34,617 nt of DNA from a virus (lineage: Duplodnaviria > Caudoviricetes): positions 1 through 34,617 of the IMG/VR virus record IMGVR_UViG_3300025101_003920. One strand, written 5' to 3'. Shown piece after piece: positions 1-29,307 of this stretch. The translations under genes and the position numbers were made by a program. Each line of letters starts with the position of its first letter. The stretch's first letter is position 1. The notes under the pieces are model-generated. The model worked only from the letters and a program-made list of their open reading frames with translations, ran no database searches and was not told the origin of the DNA.

Positions 1-104
1 TCGCGCTGGCAAGGTAGTGTCAGTGACGACTCCCATACCGTGCCATGCACGTTCGCCGTTGCCGAGCCAGCCGGATGTGAAATTTGCGGGCATTGATTGT
101 TCAT
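1..104 (-). CDS. hypothetical protein, partial (runs off window)
   Basis: ATG at 104, MNNQCPQISHP..., open to position 1; lies directly downstream of the hairpin element at 112-144. Confidence 0.5.
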   Translation of the reverse strand, partial: MNNQCPQISHPAGSATANVHGTVWESSLTLPCQR

Positions 105-111
105 ATATAGA

Positions 112-144
112 GAACACCTTTGGTGAAAGGCGCTGGTAAGCGCC
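112..144 (-). promoter_or_regulatory. GAACAC-N11-hairpin element
   Basis: GAACAC 112-117, 11 nt, GGCGCT-GGTA-AGCGCC 129-144. Confidence 0.75.
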
Positions 145-234
145 ACACACTTTTTATCGAGTTGAACTACTTATGTCTTGTATTGTCTGCTACAAAAACA
201 TTTATCTGCAAAATATGTACACGATAAGTGAATT

Positions 235-474
235 TTACTCATTGTTGAATTCTTGTTTAATCTCTTTTTGCAATTTGTCAGCTTTACTTCCAGGCGGATA
301 TGAGCCATTAAGTAGTAACTGGCGTATCTGGGGATCTTCTCGTACGTTTTTGGCAAAGTCAGCAGCAATGAGTTCGTAACAATACTCACTAACGCTTATA
401 TCTTTTATTGCACAGAAGCTTTTTAATAGAGCATGGCATTCGCTAGCCATGTTGAAGTTGATTCGTTTTGCCAT
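235..474 (-). CDS. ribbon-helix-helix DNA-binding protein
   Basis: MAKRINFNMASECHALLKSFCAIKDISVSEYCYELI shows the alternating beta-strand followed by two helices typical of RHH; ATG at 474 chosen as start. Confidence 0.6.
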   Translation of the reverse strand: MAKRINFNMASECHALLKSFCAIKDISVSEYCYELIAADFAKNVREDPQIRQLLLNGSYPPGSKADKLQKEIKQEFNNE

Positions 475-605
475 TCCCCATTTTAAAAGCATAGGTATTT
501 TAACGGTCCATTTTTGCACAATGAGTATTTGAGTTTATGAGTAAATTATGTGTAGTTACGAAACGCTACTCATAGCAAGGGATTAAAGGCAAAAACTACT
601 TCCAA

Positions 606-715
606 GCTACACTGGCTACACAAGATCTCTTATATATACCTTTTTTAATACATCCTCTCTCTATATATCTATTTTTAAAATAACTATATAGGGAGATAGC
701 GTAGCAAGTGTAGTT
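606..715. repeat. AT-rich nested inverted repeats; imperfect direct copy at 9537-9575; origin-like
   Basis: 606-619 vs 701-714 inverted, 12/14; 657-667 vs 685-695 inverted, 10/11; AAAATAACTATATAGGGA identical at 677 and 9537. Confidence 0.6.
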
Positions 716-725
716 AAGCGTGGTT

Positions 726-1373
726 TCAATATGCGAATCGCAGTGAGTCTTTCATGTCGTTCATCATTTGAGCAACAGAGTTACCTTGAGAAGCTTTGTT
801 CTTATTACCTGTAATCGAAATTTCATTGCTTTGATTGATTGGAGCAACAATACTATTGTCTCCACCAGTTACATTTCCAGTAGATTGACTAGGAATAACT
901 TTTTCAATTACTTTATCTACATATTTATCTTTAAAGTCTTGAGCGACAGGATTGGTAGTAGGAGTAGAGGTATCTACTTCTTTTTCATCAGGTCCTTGAT
1001 AACGCTCGTCACGATCGTAGAAGTCAATTAGTTGCTTTACATTACTACCTTTGACGTTCTTAATACCTGCTTGTTTCGCGTAATAATCCCATTGTGAAGG
1101 CGGAATGCCAGCTTCAAAAAGCTCATCTTCAAATGAGCCTCCTCTTAACTTGTCCCTTTTCCGTGCAAAGTTCCTTTCACCGCCAGAAAAACCAGAGTAT
1201 TTATCACCTGTATACAAATAGCGCTGAAATGCTTCATCACGCTCTTTTTCATAGAAGAGCCCATCTTCAGTTTCTGTATGCTTGGGTATGAAATTATCGT
1301 TGAATTTCTTTCTCAAATAATCATAAGAAGTTGGCTTTCCACCAAAAGATGATCTTTTGTTATCCTTACCCAT
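726..1373 (-). CDS. hypothetical protein with N/Q/S-rich motif shared with 21708-22661
   Basis: 215-aa ORF containing STGNVTGGDNSIVAPINQSNEISITGNKNKASQGNS. Confidence 0.75.
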   Translation of the reverse strand: MGKDNKRSSFGGKPTSYDYLRKKFNDNFIPKHTETEDGLFYEKERDEAFQRYLYTGDKYSGFSGGERNFARKRDKLRGGSFEDELFEAGIPPSQWDYYAKQAGIKNVKGSNVKQLIDFYDRDERYQGPDEKEVDTSTPTTNPVAQDFKDKYVDKVIEKVIPSQSTGNVTGGDNSIVAPINQSNEISITGNKNKASQGNSVAQMMNDMKDSLRFAY

Positions 1374-1423
1374 GTCATCATTAAAAGCAATGTTTATATA
1401 ATAACGATTTTGGTAGGTTTGAG

Positions 1424-1714
1424 CTAAGGCTGTTTATTAGGCTGCTCGTAATAATGAAGCTTACGATGGCAGTTAGAGCACAAACAAATACACTTCTTAA
1501 TTTCAGCCAAGGTCGCTTCAAGAGTTGAATCTCTCTTGAGCCTATTAACGGTTGCAACCTTAGTAGATGGATCTACATGATGCCAATCCATATAGGCAAT
1601 ATCAAAAGCACCACAGTGCTCACAAGCTGTAAGGCGTTTATTTACTTCATCTTTAATGTGTTGACGACGTTTATCACGTGCTTGTTTACGTTTACAAGAA
1701 TCTTTGTACGGCAC
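1424..1714 (-). CDS. HNH endonuclease
   Basis: CEHC...DWHHVDP...CICLCSNCHRKLH zinc-finger/HNH pattern. Confidence 0.85.
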   Translation of the reverse strand: MPYKDSCKRKQARDKRRQHIKDEVNKRLTACEHCGAFDIAYMDWHHVDPSTKVATVNRLKRDSTLEATLAEIKKCICLCSNCHRKLHYYEQPNKQP

Positions 1715-1753
1715 ATATATATTTTGTCCAACACAATTAATTTATCTAATTAA

Positions 1754-1837
1754 TACCCAGAGCGAGACTTGAACTCGCACGACATAAATGTCAGCGGATT
1801 TTAAGTCCGATGCGTCTACCGATTCCGCCACCTGGGC
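1754..1837 (-). tRNA. tRNA-Leu(UAA), 84 nt, no intron, CCA not encoded
   Basis: GCCCAGGTGGCGGAATCGGTAGACGCATCGGACTTAAAATCCG...GTTCAAGTC...CTGGGTA; acceptor stem, D arm, long variable arm and T loop all present. Confidence 0.95.
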
Positions 1838-1848
1838 ATAAATGGGAA

Positions 1849-1951
1849 GAGGGGCCACATCTAGCAACCCCTCAATTACACAGACAGAAACGACAAAAAT
1901 GCCTGATACCCGATCGGGTAGGCGGTGCCGTCGTTCTTCTTCCCGCCTGTG
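1849..1951 (-). ncRNA. putative structured RNA (two hairpins) in the tRNA leader
   Basis: Long stems that pair via G-U on the minus strand; inner TACCC-GATC-GGGTA. Confidence 0.45.
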
Positions 1952-1962
1952 ACAAGCTTAGC

Positions 1963-2190
1963 TTAGTTGCCAGCTAAATGTGATTCAAGCGTTTGAATTG
2001 CATCACGCAAAGTAGCGCCAGCAAATCCAGATGCGCCTGAATAAAACTCAGTTGGCTCAGCATAAATATCCGTTTCAGGATTGAACGGAATACTTGGCCG
2101 TGCTTTGAGGCAATAACCCTCAGCACGTTGAAGCTTGATCAACATCTCTTCGACTGCAGGTCTAGAGATCAAAACCATTTGCGTGTCCAT
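1963..2190 (-). CDS. hypothetical protein
   Basis: 75-aa ORF downstream of the hairpin element at 2206-2238. Confidence 0.7.
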   Translation of the reverse strand: MDTQMVLISRPAVEEMLIKLQRAEGYCLKARPSIPFNPETDIYAEPTEFYSGASGFAGATLRDAIQTLESHLAGN

Positions 2191-2205
2191 AAAAAATAGT
2201 TGAAA

Positions 2206-2238
2206 GGACAGTATTAACTAGAGGCGCTAATTAGCGCC
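2206..2238 (-). promoter_or_regulatory. hairpin element
   Basis: GGACAG-N11-GGCGCT-AATT-AGCGCC. Confidence 0.65.
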
Positions 2239-2310
2239 CTCAAAGTTTATACAATCGAATAGTAGATGTTGATACTTATGCGAATTAAATAAACATAGGT
2301 ATGTGTATGA

Positions 2311-3141
2311 GTGTTTTACAAACGTCCTGGAGTATTAGACTTATTGGCTGCAAATAATTTAAAATTTAAAGCAGACGAATATGGTAACCCACTAATAAAT
2401 CAAAGCAGAAAAGCTGGCTTGCTTTCTGTTGAGACAGTTGAGCCAGATGCTTATACTCCACAAGCGCTGTATGACGCTTTAGATGGAGCAGAACGCGCTG
2501 AAAAGGAATATATGAAAACAGGTAAAAGAGTTTTGGCTACTGACAACTCGCCTAAAACTAGTGATTACGACTTGGCTAGATTAATTGCAACTTCATTGAC
2601 CAATGATTCATTGCGAATGCTAGCTGAAAGAGGTCTTCATGGAAGATATGCAGGAGATAGAGCGGCTATGGAAGCAGCTGCGCAAGATTTGTTATACAAA
2701 GGTAGTTATGGCCGTGATTTGTATACAAACACATACACTGGCAATATGCCAACACAGATGGGACATACCACTGCAAACAGCTTAGGTGGTACTGAATTGA
2801 GACCAGAACTGGCAGCAATTAACACTAGTTTGCAAGATAGTGAAGGGAAAGACCGGCTTGAAGCAATTCGAAGAAAAAGAGTACAACTTAATGCTATGAA
2901 GGCAATTCAGGACAATCCTGAGCTGCTTGATGATCCTGACGTTAAACGTCTCATTATGGGTGATAAAACTTTTGTAAATGATTTATTATCTAAAGCAACT
3001 AACTACGGTTTTGATGTTGCTAATAAATCTGCTGGAAGCATTACTACAGCCGATCAAGGCAAAGCCGTCAATATTTTTGCTGATAAAGTCGTTATGGAGA
3101 AAGCTATTAACGGCAATGGAAAGAACGGCAAGAGGCATTAG
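2311..3141 (+). CDS. hypothetical protein (late-type gene inside the early region)
   Basis: 276-aa ORF; TACAAT at 2250; RKAG and RYAG motifs. Confidence 0.75.
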   Translation: MFYKRPGVLDLLAANNLKFKADEYGNPLINQSRKAGLLSVETVEPDAYTPQALYDALDGAERAEKEYMKTGKRVLATDNSPKTSDYDLARLIATSLTNDSLRMLAERGLHGRYAGDRAAMEAAAQDLLYKGSYGRDLYTNTYTGNMPTQMGHTTANSLGGTELRPELAAINTSLQDSEGKDRLEAIRRKRVQLNAMKAIQDNPELLDDPDVKRLIMGDKTFVNDLLSKATNYGFDVANKSAGSITTADQGKAVNIFADKVVMEKAINGNGKNGKRH

Positions 3142-3386
3142 AGCTTGCCATCAACAATACCGTTGTGTGGTTTAGATGTCCAGCCATCGTATTCACCTTT
3201 CATTACTGGAATATGAATGTCGTCCGTAACTAAACGAACGCCTTCTTCAGTCATGCCAGTAACCATATGTGTACCATCAGTAAGAACTGATGTGTATAGT
3301 CCATATTTTGATTTAACGATTGTATAGCTCCAATCAGTTTTTGTCGAAACTGGCGATTGTGAAACAGTAGATTGTGAAGATGGCAT
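3138..3386 (-). CDS. hypothetical protein
   Basis: 82-aa ORF after the hairpin at 3439-3455. Confidence 0.65.
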   Translation of the reverse strand: MPSSQSTVSQSPVSTKTDWSYTIVKSKYGLYTSVLTDGTHMVTGMTEEGVRLVTDDIHIPVMKGEYDGWTSKPHNGIVDGKL

Positions 3387-3420
3387 AGATTGCTAGATAT
3401 ATAAAGATGTCCATGGTTTA

Positions 3421-3455
3421 GGAAAAAGAAAAAACCCAGCCGTGGAATACACGGC
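3421..3455 (-). terminator. variant hairpin with U-tract on the minus strand
   Basis: GCCGTG-GAATA-CACGGC preceded on + by an A-run; lies just after the SSB stop. Confidence 0.6.
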
Positions 3456-3466
3456 CAGGAGTTTAT

Positions 3467-3949
3467 TCAATAAAGAGCAGTCTCTTCCACCTGCTCTGCT
3501 TCGTCACTGTAGTCAGGTGTCTCATCGATGGCAGGTGTGCCAACTTGAGTAACAACTGAACCAGCGACAGCACGCACGTTGTTTTCAGCCTTAGGCATAG
3601 GTCCAAGGCCACCGTCCAGTACAGTCACTCCAATGAGGCTGATTTCGGGACGCTTGCGCATACGCACTTGGCCAGAATTGTCGGTGTAAACCTCACTGAC
3701 ATTCTTGATGTGACCAGTGATAGTCACCTGACGGCCTTTACCGAAGTAGCCCTTCTCATGAAGGCCCATGAGGCCGTTGTTGTTGTTGAAGGTATACACC
3801 AAATCAGCGCCGTCATTGGTAGCAGTGCTGATGAGGGACACAGCAAGGAACTGGCTCCCATCTTTCTGCGTAACGACTTCAGCGTTGAAGATACGTCCAG
3901 TGACGGTGAGTGCGTTGAACTGAGCGTAGCGTGTTTGAGTGTTGGTCAA
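3467..3949 (-). CDS. ssb: single-stranded DNA-binding protein
   Basis: N-terminal TVTGRI, KGRQVTITGHI, YTDNSG OB-fold motifs and acidic C-terminal tail (DETPDYSDEAEQVEETALY). Confidence 0.75.
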   Translation of the reverse strand: MTNTQTRYAQFNALTVTGRIFNAEVVTQKDGSQFLAVSLISTATNDGADLVYTFNNNNGLMGLHEKGYFGKGRQVTITGHIKNVSEVYTDNSGQVRMRKRPEISLIGVTVLDGGLGPMPKAENNVRAVAGSVVTQVGTPAIDETPDYSDEAEQVEETALY

Positions 3950-3966
3950 AGTGAATCTTTGATAAA

Positions 3967-4008
3967 GAACATGAAAAAAGAAAGCCGCTGTTAAGCGGCA
4001 AGGTGTTT
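3967..4008 (-). promoter_or_regulatory. hairpin element
   Basis: GAACAT-N11-GCCGCT-GTTA-AGCGGC-N3-GTGTTT. Confidence 0.75.
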
Positions 4009-4393
4009 AGTCGTGACCACCACAGGAAGCACACATAGGGTCATCAGGACCACATTCAATAGTCTGAAGAATGTTAATCATTGCTTGAAACTTACCAGCA
4101 TCTTTGAGCCAAGCTGCAGATGAGTCTTTATCTTCTAACTTGCAATCTTCAGCTACACGTTCGTGGAAGTGGATCATACGATCAATAATGTAAACCATCA
4201 TCAGCTTGTGAACAATCAAAGGATTGTTTGAGCTAGATGCTGCACGCTGTACCCAATGTTCAGCTTCATCAAATACATCATCAAAATGATCTTTAGTAAC
4301 AACTTTATCTGCAGCATCTGTTGGCGCATTTTTGAGGTGATCTTCAAGCGCTTCAGATGAAATGCTGTCAGGGATGTTGAATGATTGAGTCAT
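4007..4393 (-). CDS. hypothetical protein
   Basis: 128-aa ORF between two hairpin elements. Confidence 0.75.
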   Translation of the reverse strand: MTQSFNIPDSISSEALEDHLKNAPTDAADKVVTKDHFDDVFDEAEHWVQRAASSSNNPLIVHKLMMVYIIDRMIHFHERVAEDCKLEDKDSSAAWLKDAGKFQAMINILQTIECGPDDPMCASCGGHD

Positions 4394-4423
4394 ATAGTAC
4401 TCGAATTTACAAAAAGAATGAAA

Positions 4424-4439
4424 CCCGCTGTTAAGCGGG
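4424..4439 (-). promoter_or_regulatory. hairpin element (box degenerate)
   Basis: CCCGCT-GTTA-AGCGGG. Confidence 0.7.
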
Positions 4440-4452
4440 ATTGGTGGTTAAC

Positions 4453-4662
4453 TCAAGCGATATTGCAGCACATATGTGCGTGGCCTGCATCGGAGATGAA
4501 GTCACCGACACGGTCTGCGAACAGAGCCGTGGAACCATCGGAGAAGATGGTGAATTCGGTTTCATCTACGAGATAGCAGAACGCATCTTCGTTCTGAGGA
4601 ACCACCTGTGATACACCTGGAATGTTGCTTGCAACAATCTGGAAGTCATAGGTGATTGCCAT
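4453..4662 (-). CDS. hypothetical protein
   Basis: 69-aa ORF between hairpin elements. Confidence 0.7.
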   Translation of the reverse strand: MAITYDFQIVASNIPGVSQVVPQNEDAFCYLVDETEFTIFSDGSTALFADRVGDFISDAGHAHMCCNIA

Positions 4663-4678
4663 ACAGCATTCAGAAAAA

Positions 4679-4722
4679 GAACACTAAAAAAGAAAGGCGC
4701 AGTTAAGCGCCATTGTGTGTTC
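4679..4722 (-). promoter_or_regulatory. hairpin element with outer stem
   Basis: GAACAC-N11-GGCGCA-GTTA-AGCGCC-N5-GTGTTC. Confidence 0.75.
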
Positions 4723-4854
4723 TCAACCGATCACGGTTGTTCTGGCAGCTTTACGCAGGTAAAGCATATCCCTCATCATCTCTTTGGTTTGACGGAGATA
4801 CTCTTCCTGAGTGCGCTTTGCTGCACGGACTTGAAGGTCTGTCATAGTGATCAT
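4723..4854 (-). CDS. small hypothetical protein (43 aa)
   Basis: MITMTDLQVRAAKRTQEEYLRQTKEMMRDMLYLRKAARTTVIG; fills the interval between two elements. Confidence 0.6.
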   Translation of the reverse strand: MITMTDLQVRAAKRTQEEYLRQTKEMMRDMLYLRKAARTTVIG

Positions 4855-4859
4855 GTAAT

Positions 4860-4892
4860 GGACACGAAAAACTAAAGCCGCTGATTAGCGGC
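4860..4892 (-). promoter_or_regulatory. hairpin element
   Basis: GGACAC-N11-GCCGCT-GATT-AGCGGC. Confidence 0.75.
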
Positions 4893-5017
4893 TATTGCTC
4901 ATCAGAGCAAATGTCTGCGGCTTCTGTACTAGATAGAGGTGGTAGTAGGCATAGGCCTATAGATCTTGCATCTGCATTGAAGTAGAGAGCAAGGAAGAAA
5001 TAAAGAACTAGCTTCAT
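4892..5017 (-). CDS. small hydrophobic protein (41 aa)
   Basis: MKLVLYFFLALYFNADARSIGLC...; TGATG coupling to the upstream stop. Confidence 0.5.
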   Translation of the reverse strand: MKLVLYFFLALYFNADARSIGLCLLPPLSSTEAADICSDEQ

Positions 5018-5535
5018 CAAACCTTGACTACTACTTCTGGATGGGCATTCCAGTACTCACAGTTCTTGAGTACATGGATGCGTTTGATCCGTTGCAGGCG
5101 AGCGCCTTCTATGTTGTAGGGACTGTCATCAATGAGAGTACCCACCATCCGATAGTTTTTGCGGAGATACTTCAGCATGTGCTGCTTTGTATTACCGCTG
5201 TTATCGACGCCTGTAGATACAAGGATGACATCAAATGGAATGTCCCACTTGCGTAGCCAGTTGAATGATTCAGTGAGCCTGTCTGATGGTCTTGCCGTAC
5301 AGATGGCGATCGAATCACCCCATTGATGCATTATCCGTAGTAGATCCACGATGCGGTCATCAGGTGCAAATTCTCTGGATGCATCAAAGAATGCATCTTT
5401 GGACATACCACGGTTGTCAAAGCCATCAGGCTTTTGAGTGATAGTGTCGTCCAGATCAAATGCATGCACAATCCGCGACTTGTGCGGCTGTACACGCTGA
5501 ATACCGACAAAGTGGGATTGAGCTATACCTTTCAT
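5017..5535 (-). CDS. HAD-superfamily phosphatase (similar to the PNKP/pseT phosphatase domain)
   Basis: AFDLDDT (DxDxT), CTAR, K and IDDSPYN motifs I-IV. Confidence 0.8.
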   Translation of the reverse strand: MKGIAQSHFVGIQRVQPHKSRIVHAFDLDDTITQKPDGFDNRGMSKDAFFDASREFAPDDRIVDLLRIMHQWGDSIAICTARPSDRLTESFNWLRKWDIPFDVILVSTGVDNSGNTKQHMLKYLRKNYRMVGTLIDDSPYNIEGARLQRIKRIHVLKNCEYWNAHPEVVVKV

Positions 5536-5547
5536 GTAATCTAATAA

Positions 5548-5580
5548 GAGTACAAGAAAGTAAAGGCGCTGTTAAGCGCC
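5548..5580 (-). promoter_or_regulatory. hairpin element
   Basis: GAGTAC-N11-GGCGCT-GTTA-AGCGCC. Confidence 0.7.
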
Positions 5581-5586
5581 TATTGG

Positions 5587-5754
5587 TCATACGTCAGATA
5601 GATGTGCAAACATGAGTGCTTGAATTAGACGCAGTTCATTAATACGTAATGGTGCTTGATGCACATTAGTAGTGAATTGCGCTGTTTCGCGACAGATGAC
5701 ATCGTGAATAGCTTGAACTTGTGCTTTGTCTAAAGATAGCTTTAGATCTGCCAT
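5587..5754 (-). CDS. small hypothetical protein (55 aa)
   Basis: MADLKLSLDKAQVQAIHDVICRETAQFTTNVHQAPLRINELRLIQALMFAHLSDV, between elements. Confidence 0.6.
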   Translation of the reverse strand: MADLKLSLDKAQVQAIHDVICRETAQFTTNVHQAPLRINELRLIQALMFAHLSDV

Positions 5755-5789
5755 TGCTTGTTTCTATATATGGACCGTTTATTACTAAA

Positions 5790-5805
5790 GCCGCAGTTAT
5801 GCGGC
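5790..5805 (-). promoter_or_regulatory. hairpin element
   Basis: GCCGCA-GTTA-TGCGGC; the loop contains the upstream gene's TAA. Confidence 0.7.
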
Positions 5806-6045
5806 CTTAGGTTGTTCTACAGCTGGCTCAAGGTCTTTCTTGAGATCAGCTACGTGAGCCTCTAAGCGTTCGATGGAAGTCTTATGACTATCGATTAGCT
5901 TATTGAGCTCATCAATCTCTGATTGAGTTTGCTCTTGTTTATAGGCGGCCAACTGTGAGTCTGAAATGACGTATACAGATGGACGCTGATGTGTGATCCA
6001 AGGATCAAAGGGATTTTGCATGTTATATAGGCTTATAAAGCTCAT
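5797..6045 (-). CDS. hypothetical coiled-coil protein
   Basis: 82 aa with heptad pattern EIDELNKLIDSHKTSIERLEAHVADLKK. Confidence 0.7.
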   Translation of the reverse strand: MSFISLYNMQNPFDPWITHQRPSVYVISDSQLAAYKQEQTQSEIDELNKLIDSHKTSIERLEAHVADLKKDLEPAVEQPKAA

Positions 6046-6137
6046 TGCTCATTTATATATACCGACCCTATTAATTTACTGTCTAAGTATCTAATAGGGC
6101 TATCGGTATACACGGTAGTTGTTGTAGTAATAGCCGA

Positions 6138-6287
6138 TTATTCACACGCCTTCTTTAAGGCATTTAATTGAAAATCGTTCTCAATAAGCTCTAACTTACG
6201 CGCTTTCTTGAGGACCTTACGGGCCTCTTTGCGAGTAGTTGCTAATTGAGCCTTATTTAACAACTTGAGGTATTTACGTTCGGACAT
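6138..6287 (-). CDS. small basic protein (49 aa)
   Basis: MSERKYLKLLNKAQLATTRKEARKVLKKARKLELIENDFQLNALKKACE. Confidence 0.55.
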   Translation of the reverse strand: MSERKYLKLLNKAQLATTRKEARKVLKKARKLELIENDFQLNALKKACE

Positions 6288-6291
6288 AGTG

Positions 6292-6381
6292 TCACTTCAG
6301 TAATTGGACAAGTAGTACCCCAACTGAGGATAGGCCCCATAGGAGTAGGAAGAGGACATACGTCTTTACTAGCTCATTCAT
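6292..6381 (-). CDS. single-TM peptide (29 aa)
   Basis: MNELVKTYVLFLLLWGLSSVGVLLVQLLK; ATGA coupling to the upstream stop. Confidence 0.45.
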   Translation of the reverse strand: MNELVKTYVLFLLLWGLSSVGVLLVQLLK

Positions 6382-6569
6382 TTCACTTTTAAGCAACGTA
6401 CATAAATGTCTAATGCGTCCACAGTCTCAATCACTTTCTCTTCTACAGCCATAGACAGTGAGATGGCAATGTCATGGCACATGTCTTCGACAGTAAGATT
6501 ATAAGGTGATTGATATGGTGTAACTGTAATGGGTACAGCTAGTAACAACGGTAGTAATGTGTTCAACAT
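6378..6569 (-). CDS. hypothetical protein with signal-peptide-like N-terminus
   Basis: 63 aa, MLNTLLPLLLAVP; GAGGA upstream. Confidence 0.6.
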   Translation of the reverse strand: MLNTLLPLLLAVPITVTPYQSPYNLTVEDMCHDIAISLSMAVEEKVIETVDALDIYVRCLKVK

Positions 6570-6650
6570 AGTGTATTCCTCTCAATTCAATTTTACCTGT
6601 TCTTAACCTGCCATTATGGATACAATGTTGGTAAAGGTAAGGTATAGGTT

Positions 6651-7250
6651 ATGGAAAGACGTAAGGCCGGTGACTTCCTAACCGGATTACTTGATAAAGC
6701 TCGTGGAGTAGACGATGCTTACAGTAGCCGGGTTAGAGATATGTACACCCCTTTGCTTGATAAGGATGGTAAGGCTAAAGGCCTTAAAGGCACAGCCTTT
6801 GTCCTTGGATCAACCATCGGTGGTGGACAGCCGTCCTTACGGAAGATGGAAGGAGTAGAGCGCACTGAGGGTGCTGGCAAAGTTCAACAACGGATTGAGA
6901 ATGTTGTTGTACCAGCCATGGAATATGGCGTACCAGCAGCCAGTGCTGTATCTAAGTACGTCCTACCAGCGGCAGGTGTGACCCTTGCTGGTAAAGGACT
7001 AATGGATCTAGCCGCAAGCTTCGGTGGTCCAGCGGACCAACAGCAGCCTGGACAGATCTCATTAGGACAATCCGCAGGCGTTGCACTTGTTAGCGGTGGA
7101 TCAGTTGCATTGGGTATGGAAGTCTCGGAAGCATCACGTGACCCATTAACCCAAGCTTCGATCTCTCCGCGTAATCGTGCAGCCATTGCTATAGGCACAG
7201 GCTTAGGCGGCGGATTGGTGAATGCAGCAGGGCAAGCTGTGCTTCAGTGA
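6651..7250 (+). CDS. Gly-rich hypothetical protein (late-type)
   Basis: 199 aa; TACAAT at 6621; N-terminal RKAGDF; hydrophobic Gly-rich segments. Confidence 0.75.
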   Translation: MERRKAGDFLTGLLDKARGVDDAYSSRVRDMYTPLLDKDGKAKGLKGTAFVLGSTIGGGQPSLRKMEGVERTEGAGKVQQRIENVVVPAMEYGVPAASAVSKYVLPAAGVTLAGKGLMDLAASFGGPADQQQPGQISLGQSAGVALVSGGSVALGMEVSEASRDPLTQASISPRNRAAIAIGTGLGGGLVNAAGQAVLQ

Positions 7251-7271
7251 TATTAGAAAACGAAAAATAAA

Positions 7272-7287
7272 GCGCCCGATAGGGCGC
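7272..7287 (-). promoter_or_regulatory. hairpin element
   Basis: GCGCCC-GATA-GGGCGC with an A-rich 5' flank on +. Confidence 0.7.
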
Positions 7288-7294
7288 ATAGGCG

Positions 7295-7534
7295 TCAAGC
7301 AGCGACGGGCTCGGAAGCTTTTACAGCCTTGGCAGCTTTAGCTTCTTCAGCTTTGGTGTCGATGGCTTTGACAAGGGACTTGGCATAAGAGAAGGAACCA
7401 CCGACAACCATGCTGTCGATAGAGCCGTCTGCTTGTTCAATGCCAACATCGAAGATGTCATACTGGTCATCTTTAGTTTCAACGCGCTCAAAGAGACGAA
7501 CGTTGATGTCTTGACCAGGGACTTTGAAACGCAT
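7295..7534 (-). CDS. hypothetical protein
   Basis: MRFKVPGQDINVRLFERV..., 79 aa from ATG 7534. Confidence 0.7.
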   Translation of the reverse strand: MRFKVPGQDINVRLFERVETKDDQYDIFDVGIEQADGSIDSMVVGGSFSYAKSLVKAIDTKAEEAKAAKAVKASEPVAA

Positions 7535-7552
7535 AAGAGATAACGAATAAGT

Positions 7553-7616
7553 GAACAAGCCCTAATCGGGCAAAGAGCGAGAAAGGCGCTGATAAGCGCC
7601 CTATCGCAGGATGTTC
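7553..7616 (-). promoter_or_regulatory. hairpin element, branched variant
   Basis: GAACA...GCCC-TAATC-GGGC...GGCGCT-GATA-AGCGCC (7585-7600)...TGTTC. Confidence 0.7.
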
Positions 7617-7938
7617 AATAGAGGGCTACCACAGCGTCCTCTGCAGGACGTGGAGCCTGAGTGTCTTCATCCAGTGGAAGTTCCTGCTGGATAGAAGGAG
7701 CTCGCTTTACAGGTTTCGGAGTAGGGCGATCCCAACGGCGCTTAGCCGTGTGACGCTCCAAGTCGTAACCGTAAGACGCATAGTTCACCATGCAGTCTTG
7801 AAGCTGTGTGTATGAGCGGAATACTCTGCAACGGTTAGTAGTACCACCGTATGCAATATATACGCCATCACACTGAGCGAATGTCCAAGTTGACAGACCT
7901 TTGGCAGTCATCTTGGTAAGAGTAGCGAGTTTACGCAT
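7615..7938 (-). CDS. hypothetical protein
   Basis: MRKLATLTKMTAKG..., 107 aa from ATG 7938. Confidence 0.7.
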   Translation of the reverse strand: MRKLATLTKMTAKGLSTWTFAQCDGVYIAYGGTTNRCRVFRSYTQLQDCMVNYASYGYDLERHTAKRRWDRPTPKPVKRAPSIQQELPLDEDTQAPRPAEDAVVALY

Positions 7939-7956
7939 ATAGATACTTAAGTATCG

Positions 7957-8007
7957 AAAGAACACGACAAAATAAAGGCGTCAATAGACGCCCTTGTGTG
8001 TTCATGC
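7957..8007. repeat. 51-bp exact direct repeat, copy 1 (hairpin element)
   Basis: AAAGAACACGACAAAATAAAGGCGTCAATAGACGCCCTTGTGTGTTCATGC. Confidence 0.9.
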
Positions 8008-8178
8008 TTCGCTTAGGTAGCCCCAAGTCATGCCGACGAGGCCACATAAGCCAAGGAACCAGAAGTTGGTATAGCTCCATACGATGTAGGAGTGATACCA
8101 AGCTGGTCCGAAGAAAAACAGCAATGCAGAGAGAGCTAGTCCGAGGACAGCGCCGAAGATTGCAGGTTTAATGGTCAT
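8002..8178 (-). CDS. small membrane protein (58 aa, ~2 TM)
   Basis: MTIKPAIFGAVLGLALSALLFFFG...FWFLGLCGLVGMTWGYLSEA. Confidence 0.65.
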   Translation of the reverse strand: MTIKPAIFGAVLGLALSALLFFFGPAWYHSYIVWSYTNFWFLGLCGLVGMTWGYLSEA

Positions 8179-8191
8179 GTGCACAGCACAT

Positions 8192-8242
8192 AAAGAACAC
8201 GACAAAATAAAGGCGTCAATAGACGCCCTTGTGTGTTCATGC
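8192..8242. repeat. 51-bp exact direct repeat, copy 2 (hairpin element)
   Basis: Identical to 7957-8007. Confidence 0.9.
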
Positions 8243-8464
8243 AGGTGAACCCGGCATAGCCGGTGTAGGGGCATCACCCCAAGCAGCACTGCGGATGCAG
8301 TAGCTGTAGAGATGTCCCCATTCACCTTCGTAGTAATCGATAAGGCTTTCGCAAGCCTTGTAACTACGTGGAGCATATGGCATATCTTGCCAGCAGTTGC
8401 TCCAAGGATTTGTAGTGTCAGGTTTACGCTCGCGAAACCAAACACGGCACAGACCTGGAATCAT
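8237..8464 (-). CDS. hypothetical protein
   Basis: MIPGLCRVWFRERKP..., 75 aa, between elements. Confidence 0.65.
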   Translation of the reverse strand: MIPGLCRVWFRERKPDTTNPWSNCWQDMPYAPRSYKACESLIDYYEGEWGHLYSYCIRSAAWGDAPTPAMPGSPA

Positions 8465-8479
8465 TGGAAGGTATATAAA

Positions 8480-8523
8480 GAACACGGAGAAAGAAACCCG
8501 TCGATAGACGGGCTCCAGTGTTC
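8480..8523 (-). promoter_or_regulatory. hairpin element with outer stem
   Basis: GAACAC-N11-CCCGTC-GATA-GACGGG-N5-GTGTTC; additional GGAG/CTCC pairing. Confidence 0.8.
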
Positions 8524-8695
8524 AGAACGGAATGTCCGCAGGTTCCGTAGGCTTGACATAGTCAATACGTACGTCTTCCCAGTCCTCAAAGGACTTGGCG
8601 TATGCCTGTGCTTCGTGATAGGTATCGAAGTACTCGCGAGTAGCTTCGGGAATACCATCGTCACAGTAAACTTCGAAGTAGGAAACTGTGTACAT
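8522..8695 (-). CDS. small acidic protein (57 aa)
   Basis: MYTVSYFEVYCDDGIPEATREYFDTYHEAQAYAKSFEDWEDVRIDYVKPTEPADIPF. Confidence 0.65.
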   Translation of the reverse strand: MYTVSYFEVYCDDGIPEATREYFDTYHEAQAYAKSFEDWEDVRIDYVKPTEPADIPF

Positions 8696-8709
8696 CTGAA
8701 TGATGTAAA

Positions 8710-8755
8710 GAACACAGTGAACGAAACCCGCCGATAGGCGGGCTCTCATGTGTTC
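8710..8755 (-). promoter_or_regulatory. hairpin element with outer stem
   Basis: GAACAC-N11-CCCGCC-GATA-GGCGGG-N7-GTGTTC. Confidence 0.8.
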
Positions 8756-8768
8756 AAGGGCAAAGCCC

Positions 8769-8885
8769 TCAAAGCCAGCCATCCTCGGGACGAGGAGCTG
8801 GACAACCGCAGAGACGCCACCAGCGATGACAAAGCTCACCGCGAAGGCGATACGAAAGCGGCAGAGAAAGGAGGAAACGACGCAC
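8769..8885 (-). CDS. possible micro-ORF (38 aa)
   Basis: GTG start, MRRFLLSLPLSYRLRGELCHRWWRLCGCPAPRPEDGWL, between elements. Confidence 0.35.
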   Translation of the reverse strand: MRRFLLSLPLSYRLRGELCHRWWRLCGCPAPRPEDGWL

Positions 8886-8901
8886 GAGCAAAGCGAGCAA
8901 A

Positions 8902-8944
8902 GAACACAACTGACTAGACACGTCGATAGACGTGAAGTGTGTTC
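8902..8944 (-). promoter_or_regulatory. hairpin element with outer stem (most upstream copy)
   Basis: GAACAC-N11-CACGTC-GATA-GACGTG-N4-GTGTTC. Confidence 0.8.
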
Positions 8945-9069
8945 AGTAATTGAATTGATGAGAGATGACTACACGCATAAGTTACGCATCAGTGATGCAG
9001 TCAACGGATGATACATGTGTCATCAATGAATACACATACGTTGCAACATCTGATCTAAACGAAAGGAAG

Positions 9070-9220
9070 ACTTGAGTTAGACGATTGCAACTTGTGTGGA
9101 AACTCAACTGTTACAACATAAGTAACTTACATGTGAAACAACTTAAGTAAACTTATGAATTGAAACTTGAGTTTGAATCTGTTGTTAGAACAAAAGTAAA
9201 TCACAAGTAAAAACTTGAGT
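9070..9220. repeat. cluster of (A)ACTT(G/A) motifs in the non-coding divergence region
   Basis: ACTTGAGT 9070, AACTTGTGT 9089, AACTTAC 9124, AACTTAAGT 9140, AACTTATG 9150, AACTTGAGT 9164 and 9212. Confidence 0.5.
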
Positions 9221-9536
9221 GTATTTTTTTTGTTCCACCGGGTAGGCGGGTACAACAGGGATTAGACGTGTCAAAAATTTTGTAGCATTTTTAGGACCCT
9301 ATAGAGCGGTTTTTTGTGCCTGATTAAATGTGCCGACTCGTATCCCAGAATCTTTGGGTATATGTGGGATATTTTACGGTACATACCATATATGGCTGTG
9401 TTTGTGCTAATTAACACAAGACAGTCGGGCAGTGCGATGCTGCTTGTTTGGAATCAAACTACAGACCACGCCAAATACGGCAGTTTTCTATATAACTGTT
9501 TTTAATTCTCTTACTACGCTTCTCTCCATCTTTTTG

Positions 9537-9575
9537 AAAATAACTATATAGGGAAACAGAGTAGCAAGAGTAGTT
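9537..9575. repeat. imperfect direct copy of 677-715
   Basis: AAAATAACTATATAGGGA-N6-GTAGCAAG-N-GTAGTT. Confidence 0.75.
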
Positions 9576-26589: not shown

Positions 26590-26636
26590 TTTTTTGAACA
26601 TCTACTGATAGAATTAAGTATCAGTGAAGATTGAAT

Positions 26637-27578
26637 ATGTCACAAGTGAAGAGTTCTGGAGATTCTGTTCGCTCCTATTTGCGCGACATTGGCCGAATCC
26701 CACTTCTAGAACATGATGAAGAGATTTTGCTTGGTCGAAAAGTACAACGTTTGATGGAAATCAAAGCGTGCGAAGAGTTAGCAAGTACAGCTACAAAAGA
26801 CGATTTGGCAGGAGTTCTAGGTATGACTGTCAAAGATTTAAAGCGTGAAATCCGTGAAGGCAAGAAAGCTAAGGACAAAATGGTGACAGCAAATCTGCGT
26901 CTTGTTGTGTCAGTAGCTAAGAAATATACAAAACGGAATATGGATCTGCTTGATATTATTCAAGAGGGAACTATTGGGCTTGTAAGAGGTGTTGAAAAAT
27001 TTGACCCAGGTCGTGGCTATAAGTTTAGTACTTATGCATATTGGTGGATTAGGCAAGGGATTACTCGTGCAATCGCTGAAAAATCGAGGGCGATTCGGCT
27101 ACCAATTCATGTTACAGAAAACCTCAACAAGCTTAAGAAAGCCCAGCGTGAATTAAGTCAAATGAATGGTGAGATTCCAAACGTATTTGAATTGTCTGAA
27201 TACTTAAATTTGAGTGTTGATGAGATTAAAGATTTGATGTGCAAGGCTCGTCAACCAACATCTCTCGAAATCAAAATTGGAGAAAACCGCGATACCGCTC
27301 TAATCGATCTGCTTGAAGATAAATCTCAGCTACCCGATCTATTGCTTGAGCAGCAGTTCATTAAAGAGGATATTCGAGAACTCATTAATGATCTACCTGA
27401 AATGCAAGCCGCTGTAATTAGCATGCGCTACGGCATTGGCGATGAAATGCTTGAGCCAATGTCTATGACAGCAATTGGTCAGATTTTAAATATGAGCAGA
27501 GACCGTGTAAGGACGCTAGAACACAAAGCCCTTAAAGGGTTGAGAGAGCAATCGGAATGCGTCAGTGACTATGTTTAA
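26637..27578 (+). CDS. rpoD: RNA polymerase sigma-70 factor, group 2 RpoD-like (cyanobacterial type)
   Basis: Region 1.2 DSVRSYLRDIGRIPLL; region 2 NLRLVVSVAKKY, DIIQEG, KFSTYAYWWIRQ; region 4 HTH SRDRVRTLE; no region 1.1. Confidence 0.93.
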   Translation: MSQVKSSGDSVRSYLRDIGRIPLLEHDEEILLGRKVQRLMEIKACEELASTATKDDLAGVLGMTVKDLKREIREGKKAKDKMVTANLRLVVSVAKKYTKRNMDLLDIIQEGTIGLVRGVEKFDPGRGYKFSTYAYWWIRQGITRAIAEKSRAIRLPIHVTENLNKLKKAQRELSQMNGEIPNVFELSEYLNLSVDEIKDLMCKARQPTSLEIKIGENRDTALIDLLEDKSQLPDLLLEQQFIKEDIRELINDLPEMQAAVISMRYGIGDEMLEPMSMTAIGQILNMSRDRVRTLEHKALKGLREQSECVSDYV

Positions 27579-28297: not shown

Positions 28298-28815
28298 TCT
28301 TCAAGTTTTTTCTTAATAGGTTTTTTTGAGAGCTTAACTGTAGGGACAGGAGAAGGTTTGGTATTTACGATAGGAGTAGTCTTTGTAGACTTAACTGCAA
28401 CAGCTTTTTTAGGCTCTACCCCTGCAGGCTTCTCAGAAGATCCTTGAGGTTTGACAGTCATAACCTTGCCACCGCTCATTGTCGGGAGAACGTAGTGCTC
28501 AATTAAACCCAGATCACGAGTAAAGAGTGCTGCACGAGTAATGCCCTTTGCACCATAAAAAGCAAAATTAAGCTTTCCATCATGGTCAATACGCACATGC
28601 GTTCCATTTCCTGAAGCGACAGCAAGCTTCAAAACTTCTCCATTAGCAGTAACTTCAAAAATAGTGCAGTCAACATACTGAACACCATTAGTAGCGTGCC
28701 ACCATTCTTTGATTTTATGAGTATCACCACCTCGCTTAGGACGGGTCAACCGCAGTTCTTTGCCAGTGTGCTTACTTACGTTTTTTACACCAGTAAGAAT
28801 AAGACTATCAGCCAT
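28294..28815 (-). CDS. hypothetical protein with Lys/Pro-rich tail
   Basis: 173-aa ORF overlapping the HNH stop. Confidence 0.7.
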   Translation of the reverse strand: MADSLILTGVKNVSKHTGKELRLTRPKRGGDTHKIKEWWHATNGVQYVDCTIFEVTANGEVLKLAVASGNGTHVRIDHDGKLNFAFYGAKGITRAALFTRDLGLIEHYVLPTMSGGKVMTVKPQGSSEKPAGVEPKKAVAVKSTKTTPIVNTKPSPVPTVKLSKKPIKKKLED

Positions 28816-29185
28816 TTTCGCGATTACAACTTTCTTCTATTTTAGTCCATTTAAGATTACCAACGATGTTGTTATCTTTTTGACCATCTACATGACGAAC
28901 TCTGCTACATGTCTTTGTACGACCGGGCAGTGATAATGGGGGTTTTAAAAATGCAAGTGCTACAAGTGTATGAACTGCTGCGGTAATTGTTTTCTTTCTT
29001 CCAATTCGTTGTGTAAGGTTAACTTGCATATAGCCATTCTTATTCTTCCGTTGCTTTAATATTTTCTCGGACCTTCCTTTAGTGCTTTTGATTTGTCCTT
29101 TGCTGTTTATATAGTATTCGATACAGCATTCATAGCCCGGTAAAGTATGAATCGGAGTCCATTCATTGTCGTCGATAAATTCCAT
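28808..29185 (-). CDS. NUMOD4-HNH homing endonuclease
   Basis: EWTPI..PGY..YYINSKGQIKS, GYMQVNL, VHTLVALAF, HVDGQKDNNIVGNLKW. Confidence 0.85.
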   Translation of the reverse strand: MEFIDDNEWTPIHTLPGYECCIEYYINSKGQIKSTKGRSEKILKQRKNKNGYMQVNLTQRIGRKKTITAAVHTLVALAFLKPPLSLPGRTKTCSRVRHVDGQKDNNIVGNLKWTKIEESCNRENG

Positions 29186-29307
29186 CGTTATTAACCACAA
29201 AATATTGGGGTATATATTCTAAAGTATAGCAATAACTACTAATATCGTTATATGTGTCTAAGTCGAAGACACTTATAAACCTTTTTAGCTTACGGAGTTA
29301 CGATCCT

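Follow-up and report, generated by a model that had tools for sequence, protein, structure and literature searches.

Hairpin-box elements between small genes of a marine cyanophage: a candidate terminator/start cassette with a predicted RNA 5' end at the box

The early RNA of phage T7 is cut by RNase III at sites that have a long double helix around the cut, and the attC sites of integrons carry an invariant GTT crossover with a paired AAC on the other arm. The virion RNA polymerase cognate to the promoters of phage N4 is a protein of about 3,500 amino acids (aa) with a T7-like core. For cyanophage Syn9, the early regulatory element treated by Doron 2016 is reportedly a non-host-like repeat before small early genes. 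The N4 promoters, as set out in parts of PMC4496689, reach from -17 to +1 and have their loop centred at -11, and T4-like phages possess the PeSL/PmSL cassettes (Arbiol 2010, PMC2839356; Comeau 2014, PMC4122927). Here we analyse IMGVR_UViG_3300025101_003920, a 34.6-kb fragment of a marine cyanophage (34,617 nucleotides, hereafter the window), in which a repeated element, composed of a short hairpin and a box at a fixed distance from it, lies in front of most small minus-strand genes.

As far as PeSLs are described in parts of the two papers, the element resembles them in being an intergenic module between small variable genes, with stop codon, GC stem-loop and start codon and a dual stop/start role (putative here), and in marking sites of gene gain and loss (here, BLAST breakpoints lie at elements in three relatives). 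The stem-loop of PeSLs sits mostly between -35 and -10 or over -10, which is the place of the element hairpin if G14 of the box, 14 nucleotides (nt) past the stem, is +1. By contrast, PeSLs carry sigma-70 -35/-10 boxes and a Shine-Dalgarno sequence, neither of which occurs in the elements, the position of their stem-loop varies while stem length and spacer are fixed here, and the phage group is another one. Because the -35/-10 and Shine-Dalgarno features fail, we do not class the element as a member of the PeSLs. We nevertheless give even chances to its being a PeSL-like terminator/start cassette that is read by the host polymerase at a non-canonical start. The hairpin would end or shield the upstream message between small genes, a new message would begin at the box, 12-14 bases beyond the stem, and host RNA polymerase would start there without -10 and -35 boxes. 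The anatomy of the element is fixed and conserved, no phage polymerase is detectable in complete relatives, TANAAT and Shine-Dalgarno signals are lacking, and genes are gained and lost at the joints. Literature searches on the element, whose scope did not extend to Doron 2016 on the Syn9 early element, found no description of it; new here are the calibration of the leaders, a second hairpin anchored at the box, and a chromosomal island with a third loop family.

The first-pass annotation had listed 15 hairpins in the window (Table 1), all of which have the coordinates, stems and loops it gave. Positions 1-9300 contain 16 perfect GC-rich hairpins of 6 bp and 4 nt, compared with a mean of 0.27 (maximum 2) in 60 dinucleotide shuffles; 14 of them are elements, and the other two (4724 and 7635), both intragenic, do not count as such. 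Beyond position 9300 the window holds 2 such hairpins where 1.1 are expected. Covariation of the stems was also borne out, with 83 of 84 stem cells paired and double-sided changes at all six pairs in rows chosen for pairing; a search without any demand for pairing returned 58 perfect stems out of 70, as against 8.6 with randomly dealt arms. The GAACAC box (plus strand) 11 nt from the stem is complete in seven copies, agrees in at least five of six letters in nine, and in at least four of six in 11 of the 15. The CG said to be almost invariant at stem positions 3-4 characterises the window's sub-lineage only; stems such as GCCCCC, GGACCC and GCCACC occur in relatives.

The element was found in about 20 related contigs. 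Our family set, 25 sequences from 21 contigs, yielded 209 elements (153 distinct, in 115 clusters), from which six clusters were removed as reverse-orientation duplicates or strays, leaving 109; the count of box positions below uses 111, since there members and not clusters were removed. In mRNA sense, and counted from the end of the stem, the pattern is T-n-T-(A/T), a T-rich stretch to +12, and then T13 G14 Y Y C T T, with T1 in 86%, T3 in 90% and A at position 4 in 50%. The box has TG at +13/+14 as its conserved core, TGYY beginning at +13 in 69 of 111 clusters, at +12 in 7 and at +14 in 4. Stem length is held at six pairs in 106 of 131, stem sequences vary by lineage, and so do the loops (TANC in the window's lineage, TCC/TCT in relative G008, TGNC in cyanobacterial genome G315); the spacing is constant across lineages with 3- and 4-nt loops.

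Outside free phage contigs, 17 intact copies occur in a tRNA-bounded, prophage-like island of a cyanobacterial chromosome (G315:C16:702,900-727,900; L184, L185), which also has homologues of SSB, DUF932, primase pieces and a split DNA polymerase. Seven other DUF932 loci in cyanobacterial genomes are without the element, and phage S-EIVl has no such element array. In a Synechococcus single-cell contig (L166:1501-1903), a stranded phage cassette lies next to an argJ-like gene: a single element, followed by a gene homologous to window gene 7295-7534 (43% over 54 aa). A contig of the phage group (L162, genome G029) has six elements in 3 kb, with G-rich tails instead of U-tracts; its placement in a Rhodobiaceae metagenome assembly is probably a mis-bin.

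The RNA 5' end was placed by comparison with the ordinary genes of the phage, most of which carry a plain TANAAT box. Among 426 open reading frames (ORFs) of five relatives, TANAAT stands 21-26 nt before ATG in 77 cases versus about 10 by shuffle, and the seventh base is A in 83% of 83 sites, so that ordinary leaders would mostly be 17-20 nt long. Where an element leads the gene, TANAAT is absent from its usual slot (0 of 66 genes), and the distance from G14 to ATG is 18-19 nt at the mode (29 of 58). This points to an RNA that begins at the box, at +12 to +14 after the stem, and has a leader of about 18-20 nt. The T13-G14 step fits the pyrimidine/purine rule of bacterial starts. The first-pass annotation had predicted transcripts starting with GUGUUC, and a start at the box or at most 2 nt from it is the best reading, GUGUUC (+12) falling within +12 to +14.

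A second mark of the same position is present in 29 of 109 elements, namely a compact hairpin with its 5' arm beginning between +12 and +15. Anchor calls number 43 in this interval versus about 3 in controls, and 1 versus 3.5 at +6 to +11; where the box is shifted, the start of the second hairpin tracks the box G. These hairpins are RNA-like, with G.U pairs 15 times in the mRNA sense versus 3 in the template sense and with loops such as UUCG, GAAA and GCGA (GNRA), and the G315 island replicates the pattern with other letters (second hairpin at +13 in 7 of 17 copies versus 0.14). A stem at the extreme 5' end is a known stabiliser of bacterial mRNA, and by the present evidence about a quarter of the element-led genes would have a message capped by a 5' stem-loop. 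The median distance to ATG is 21 nt after a second hairpin and 32 nt after a first one, and the first hairpin and spacer are therefore probably not part of the downstream message. Finally, of 92 elements that lead a gene, 72 have retained the box, versus 8 of 17 that do not (p 0.014), and the box persists in 11 of 13 elements for which no upstream gene was found.

Several observations weigh against the stop-and-start reading. The leader ruler, the second hairpins and the ATG spacing place the 5' end yet fit start and cut equally, and the 29 second hairpins fall into about six orthologous groups (grouped by eye; one in the window) and thus do not count as 29 separate events. No -10 or -35 boxes occur at any register, the upstream information content is below 0.5 bit, and TANNNT is present at the expected position in 6 of 78 versus 14.7 from column frequencies; with the -10/-35 signals missing, a start at the box would need a non-canonical mechanism. 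Hairpin-stabilised pauses, too, have a spacer of 12-13 nt that ends in Y-G. At least six U in eight follow the stem in 36 of 109 elements, so that most copies would be poor terminators. In one-mismatch stems, the mRNA strand has G.U in 9 cases versus A.C in 4 (p 0.27, not significant), a slight indication that the first hairpin may act as RNA. The array genes, moreover, are only probably early ones, a label taken from gene size and position alone. Other searches for conventional signals gave 11 promoter-like sites versus 19.8 in shuffles, no host-type promoter by scan upstream of the first element, and a Shine-Dalgarno-like motif before the start codon in 2 of 91 leaders.

The 5' end evidence would be accounted for without promoter letters if the element were a processing joint, i.e. 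if long early transcripts were cut at each copy, the hairpin protecting the upstream piece and the downstream piece starting at the box with a monophosphate. We consider this rather unlikely. It has in its favour the lean of the G.U pairs and the longer irregular helix (10-13 flank pairs) that 7 of 13 window copies tested can form (8727, 8497, 8212, 7977, 7585, 2223 and 5790), all seven of which fold better than with swapped flanks. A long bulged helix in some copies, and a hairpin between successive small early genes, likewise recall the RNase III sites of T7; here, however, only some elements have the long helix. In the family as a whole it is not general: the flanks add -6.2 kcal/mol on average, as against -5.3 when swapped (p 0.02; p 0.06 within genomes), and in G008 the swapped ones do better. 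An upstream complement of the box is found in 11 of 78 versus 9.3. Cyanobacterial RNase E has a signature, given in part of PMC8682795, of A at -3/-4 and U at +2, which the elements match poorly (A in 14-31% at the matching columns), and it would leave the fixed distance and G14 unexplained. Pfam and PHROGs scans, furthermore, found no phage ribonuclease family among the matches of the scanned ORFs. We favour transcription start over cutting as the origin of the predicted 5' end at the box.

Part of the annotation's proposal was that the hairpin might double as a terminator, which agrees with some copies and not with the two thirds in which the U-tract is weak. In 44 of 96 cases a stop codon is found 5-9 nt ahead of the stem, nine of the 15 window copies pass a minus-strand terminator scan, 12 of 17 copies in G315 have at least six U in eight, and the copy at 7272, with no gene behind it, has kept hairpin and U-run and lost the box. 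The commonest stem-loop flanked by A- and T-runs is a terminator-like hairpin in five unrelated bacteria as well, and plain terminators of these phages use TAAC/TACC loops. Termination would thus be expected at the U-rich copies. The stop codon positions, the occurrence in unrelated bacteria and the loops of the plain terminators would also suit an element that is a terminator, attenuator or hairpin-stabilised pause only, grading expression along a polycistronic message without a new 5' end. Intrinsic terminators and NusG-type pauses share with it a GC hairpin that follows a stop codon at a few bases' distance, a U-rich tail and Y-G 11-13 nt downstream, and the hairpin-to-Y-G spacing fits pause hairpins, which according to parts of PMC9963633 lie about 11-13 nt from the RNA 3' end. 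We still find this explanation unlikely: it does not predict second hairpins starting exactly at the box nor the extra 12 nt before ATG, complete TTNTTT occurs in 4 of 78 (register -11) or 10 of 78 (one base earlier), and hairpin and box are kept where the upstream gene is absent. The rigid six-pair stem and a box tied to the next gene are further differences from such terminators and pauses.

On the question of the strand that carries the functional hairpin, the evidence points both ways. The annotation had pointed to the stability of GNNA DNA loops; the loop on the template strand is of G..A type here in 78 of 109 stems (39 of the 78 with C-G closure), in 15 of 17 in G315, and as N4-like GGA triloops in G008; GTTA, GABA and GGA/GAA are listed as stable DNA mini-hairpin loops in part of PMC13037366. 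None of the 109 six-pair stems has a UNCG, GNRA or CUUG loop in mRNA sense. Together with the stem length held at six pairs, these loops speak for a role as DNA. What weakens the loop argument is that unrelated bacteria, and these phages themselves, also use the commonest hairpin as an ordinary-looking terminator. DNA folding energies differ little between strands.

The annotation had gone further and seen in the array a promoter system for a phage-encoded RNA polymerase, in the manner of the template-strand hairpins read by the virion enzyme of N4. The likeness lies in a short covarying palindrome of fixed stem length, in a template loop that in many copies is of G..A type and closed by C-G, in a fixed distance to the presumed start, and in a presumed early cluster that includes an SSB-fold gene. 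Promoters of the N4 kind are extruded under supercoiling and activated by SSB. The copies number 15-20 here and three in N4, stem and start are separated by 12-13 nt instead of 4, mostly tetraloops (4 nt in the window) replace the 3-nt G-N-A loop, and the loop would sit near -21 as compared with -11 in the account given in part of PMC4496689. No polymerase was detected by profile, size or motif in the complete relatives. T7-type, beta and beta-prime profiles gave none in G001 and G012, which are complete by their end repeats, or in near-complete relatives: PF00940 has no match in G001, G012, G005 and G008 (the Syn5 positive control matches), and the beta and beta-prime profiles have none in five records each (14 of 14 controls match). 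Nor was a polymerase among the Pfam and PHROGs matches of ORFs of at least 100 aa in the window and G001, a very divergent or split enzyme being beyond the reach of such scans. The longest ORFs (up to 1231 aa in G001 and 882 aa in G012) are fibres, portal and primase, the sole conserved DxDGD motif is in the primase, and atlas look-ups of the 679-aa and 636-aa ORFs, both without known function, gave no named match. An N4-type promoter read by a phage-encoded (virion) RNA polymerase is therefore very improbable.

The sigma-70-family gene of the phage (Table 1) points instead to use of the host RNA polymerase core. Its product is 77-93% conserved in relatives and absent from S-EIVl. The TA(A/C/G)AAT boxes with an A at +1 found before many genes may be targets of this sigma factor. 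A dependence of the element on the factor found no support: S-EIVl lacks both, yet elements occur without a sigma match in G016 (57 kb, probably incomplete) and in the G315 stretch. Two candidates for recruitment of the host enzyme may be ranked. The first would be a putative phage factor recognising the 16-bp palindrome or its extruded DNA hairpin; a conserved 228-aa gene, led by two elements, was considered as such a reader, but its product, with a good predicted fold (pLDDT 78), has no clear match (best Z 5.1). The second would be restart by the polymerase just terminated on the hairpin, a relay that is possible since post-termination restart is documented in E. coli, where, according to part of PMC6978322, the DNA-retained polymerase restarts after termination, usually in the reverse direction. 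We tentatively extend this to a promoter class without -10/-35 boxes, in which the host multisubunit polymerase would start 12-14 nt past a palindrome read as structure (an extruded G..A-loop DNA mini-hairpin, or a terminator relay from gene to gene), a proposal that we ourselves hold to be doubtful.

Gene content also changes at the elements. BLAST alignments of the window with G001, G002 and G005 break at elements 129, 5565/5790, 7272, 7977/8212, 8497/8727 and 8919, and the near-identical elements 4 and 5 flank a cassette (8002-8178) that is missing from G001 and G002. Together with the tyrosine recombinase of G001 and the element found beside a 7295-7534 homologue in a Synechococcus chromosome contig, these breaks would suit a recombination joint in the first place, a repeat that shuffles gene cassettes (as PeSL mini-circle or integron-like) and affects expression secondarily. 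This is quite improbable in our judgement, as homologous recombination between similar repeats suffices for the breaks, while the fixed ATG distance and the 5' hairpins are expression features and there is no invariant crossover triplet (GTTC in 30 of 78). An attC site was rejected on the same GTTC count and on an upstream complement no commoner than chance. The early element of Syn9 is reportedly akin in being a non-host-like repeat before small early genes. In positions 1-100,000 (of 177,300) of that genome, the small-gene spacers show another motif with -10-like boxes, and a single GC-rich 6-bp hairpin was detected.

How early genes are activated in cyanophages without a polymerase of their own is poorly known. 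The present lineage has two cleanly separate classes of leader, TANAAT for most genes and hairpin-box for small variable ones, and strains exchange genes at the same joints. If the box is a true start, it would represent a compact, portable promoter type beyond sigma-70 rules; and if the start is read from structure, a cellular-type polymerase would for the first time have a promoter defined by a hairpin, one that occurs in an abundant marine phage group and in a cyanobacterial chromosome island. The island copies and the exactness of the predicted start (+12 to +14) make the proposal testable without phage culture.

The terminase encoded in the window shares 55.6% identity with its counterpart in Synechococcus phage S-EIVl. 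A close relative of the window, G001 (80,569 nt, terminal repeat 141 nt), with a sigma factor 92% identical to that of the window, encodes psbA and transaldolase, along with a tyrosine recombinase and a family A DNA polymerase that is split. A BAC21E04 protein has an 87% identical match in G001. These features agree with the lineage described in part of bioRxiv 10.1101/325100, a part that makes no mention of hairpins, promoters or sigma, though its supplements could still name repeats. The same preprint treats a cultured strain, WH8016, that has a relic prophage of the lineage, and reports no expression within it. Judged by these sequence comparisons, the window phage is an S-EIVl-related cyanophage of the BAC21E04 lineage, which has 468 capsid matches in IMG/VR. 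The array is a run of small minus-strand genes including tRNA-Leu and the SSB-fold gene. An Rfam scan found only the tRNA, two histone stem-loop matches (E 0.65-0.81) being judged chance.

Table 1. Elements and other features of the window. Positions are those of the whole 34,617-nt stretch.
Feature	Position	Hairpin	Strand	Remarks
Element 1	8902..8934	8919-8934	-	box 8902-8907; array head, no upstream gene; weak U-tract (3/8)
Element 2	8710..8742	8727-8742	-	ATG 8695; longer helix possible via upstream GAACAC
Element 3	8480..8512	8497-8512	-	ATG 8464
Element 4	8195..8227	8212-8227	-	near-identical to element 5
Element 5	7960..7992	7977-7992	-	ATG 7938
Element 6	7568..7600	7585-7600	-	box variant TGCCC
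Second compact hairpin, GCCC-gatta-GGGC	7559..7571		-	begins at G14 of element 6; predicted 5'-terminal RNA stem; ATG 7534
Element 7	7255..7287	7272-7287	-	box lost; 7 U in 8; no downstream gene; faces plus-strand gene 6651-7250; terminator-like
Element 8	5773..5805	5790-5805	-	loop holds stop codon of 5797-6045; ATG 5754
Element 9	5548..5580	5565-5580	-	box variant; ATG 5535 of polynucleotide-kinase/phosphatase-like gene
Element 10	4860..4892	4877-4892	-	
Element 11	4679..4711	4696-4711	-	5 pairs plus T.T mismatch; ATG 4662
Element 12	4407..4439	4424-4439	-	box TGTAA; ATG 4393
Element 13	3967..3999	3984-3999	-	TTG 3949
Gene with predicted SSB (OB) fold, element-led	3467..3949		-	model pLDDT 54; Foldseek E 9e-5 to bacterial SSBs
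Ordinary terminator-like hairpin	3435..3459		-	behind SSB gene; long U-run, no box; internal contrast
Element 14	2206..2238	2223-2238	-	no same-strand upstream gene (plus-strand gene 2311-3141 there); weak U-tract, box kept; ATG 2190
tRNA-Leu(TAA)	1753-1838		-	
HNH endonuclease gene	1424-1714		-	
Element 15	112..144	129-144	-	precedes DUF932 gene running off window
Sigma-70-family factor (regions 1.2, 2, 3, 4)	26631-27578		+	in structural module
NUMOD4 gene	28808-29200		-	

On either side of the small-gene region stands an AT-rich stretch (656-716 and 9488-9575); the two are similar and contain inverted repeats as well as a CTACGC-type motif. Related motifs occur in two or three copies in G001, G005 and G008; they are possible origin, packaging or regulator sites. 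The stretch 656-716 is adjoined by a 94-aa ORF (235-519, minus strand) without Pfam or PHROGs match, the sequence pattern of which resembles a ribbon-helix-helix DNA-binding protein. Between the divergent small-gene and structural regions, about 630 nt (8944-9575) are without a clear gene, contain phased A/T runs and several inverted repeats, and are conserved at 87% in G001 and about 72% in G005; this stretch is a candidate for a genome end or packaging site. Two plus-strand genes (2311-3141 and 6651-7250) are inserted in the minus-strand array, both with TANAAT-type boxes upstream, and at their ortholog position G001 has a different, longer gene (37993-39078).

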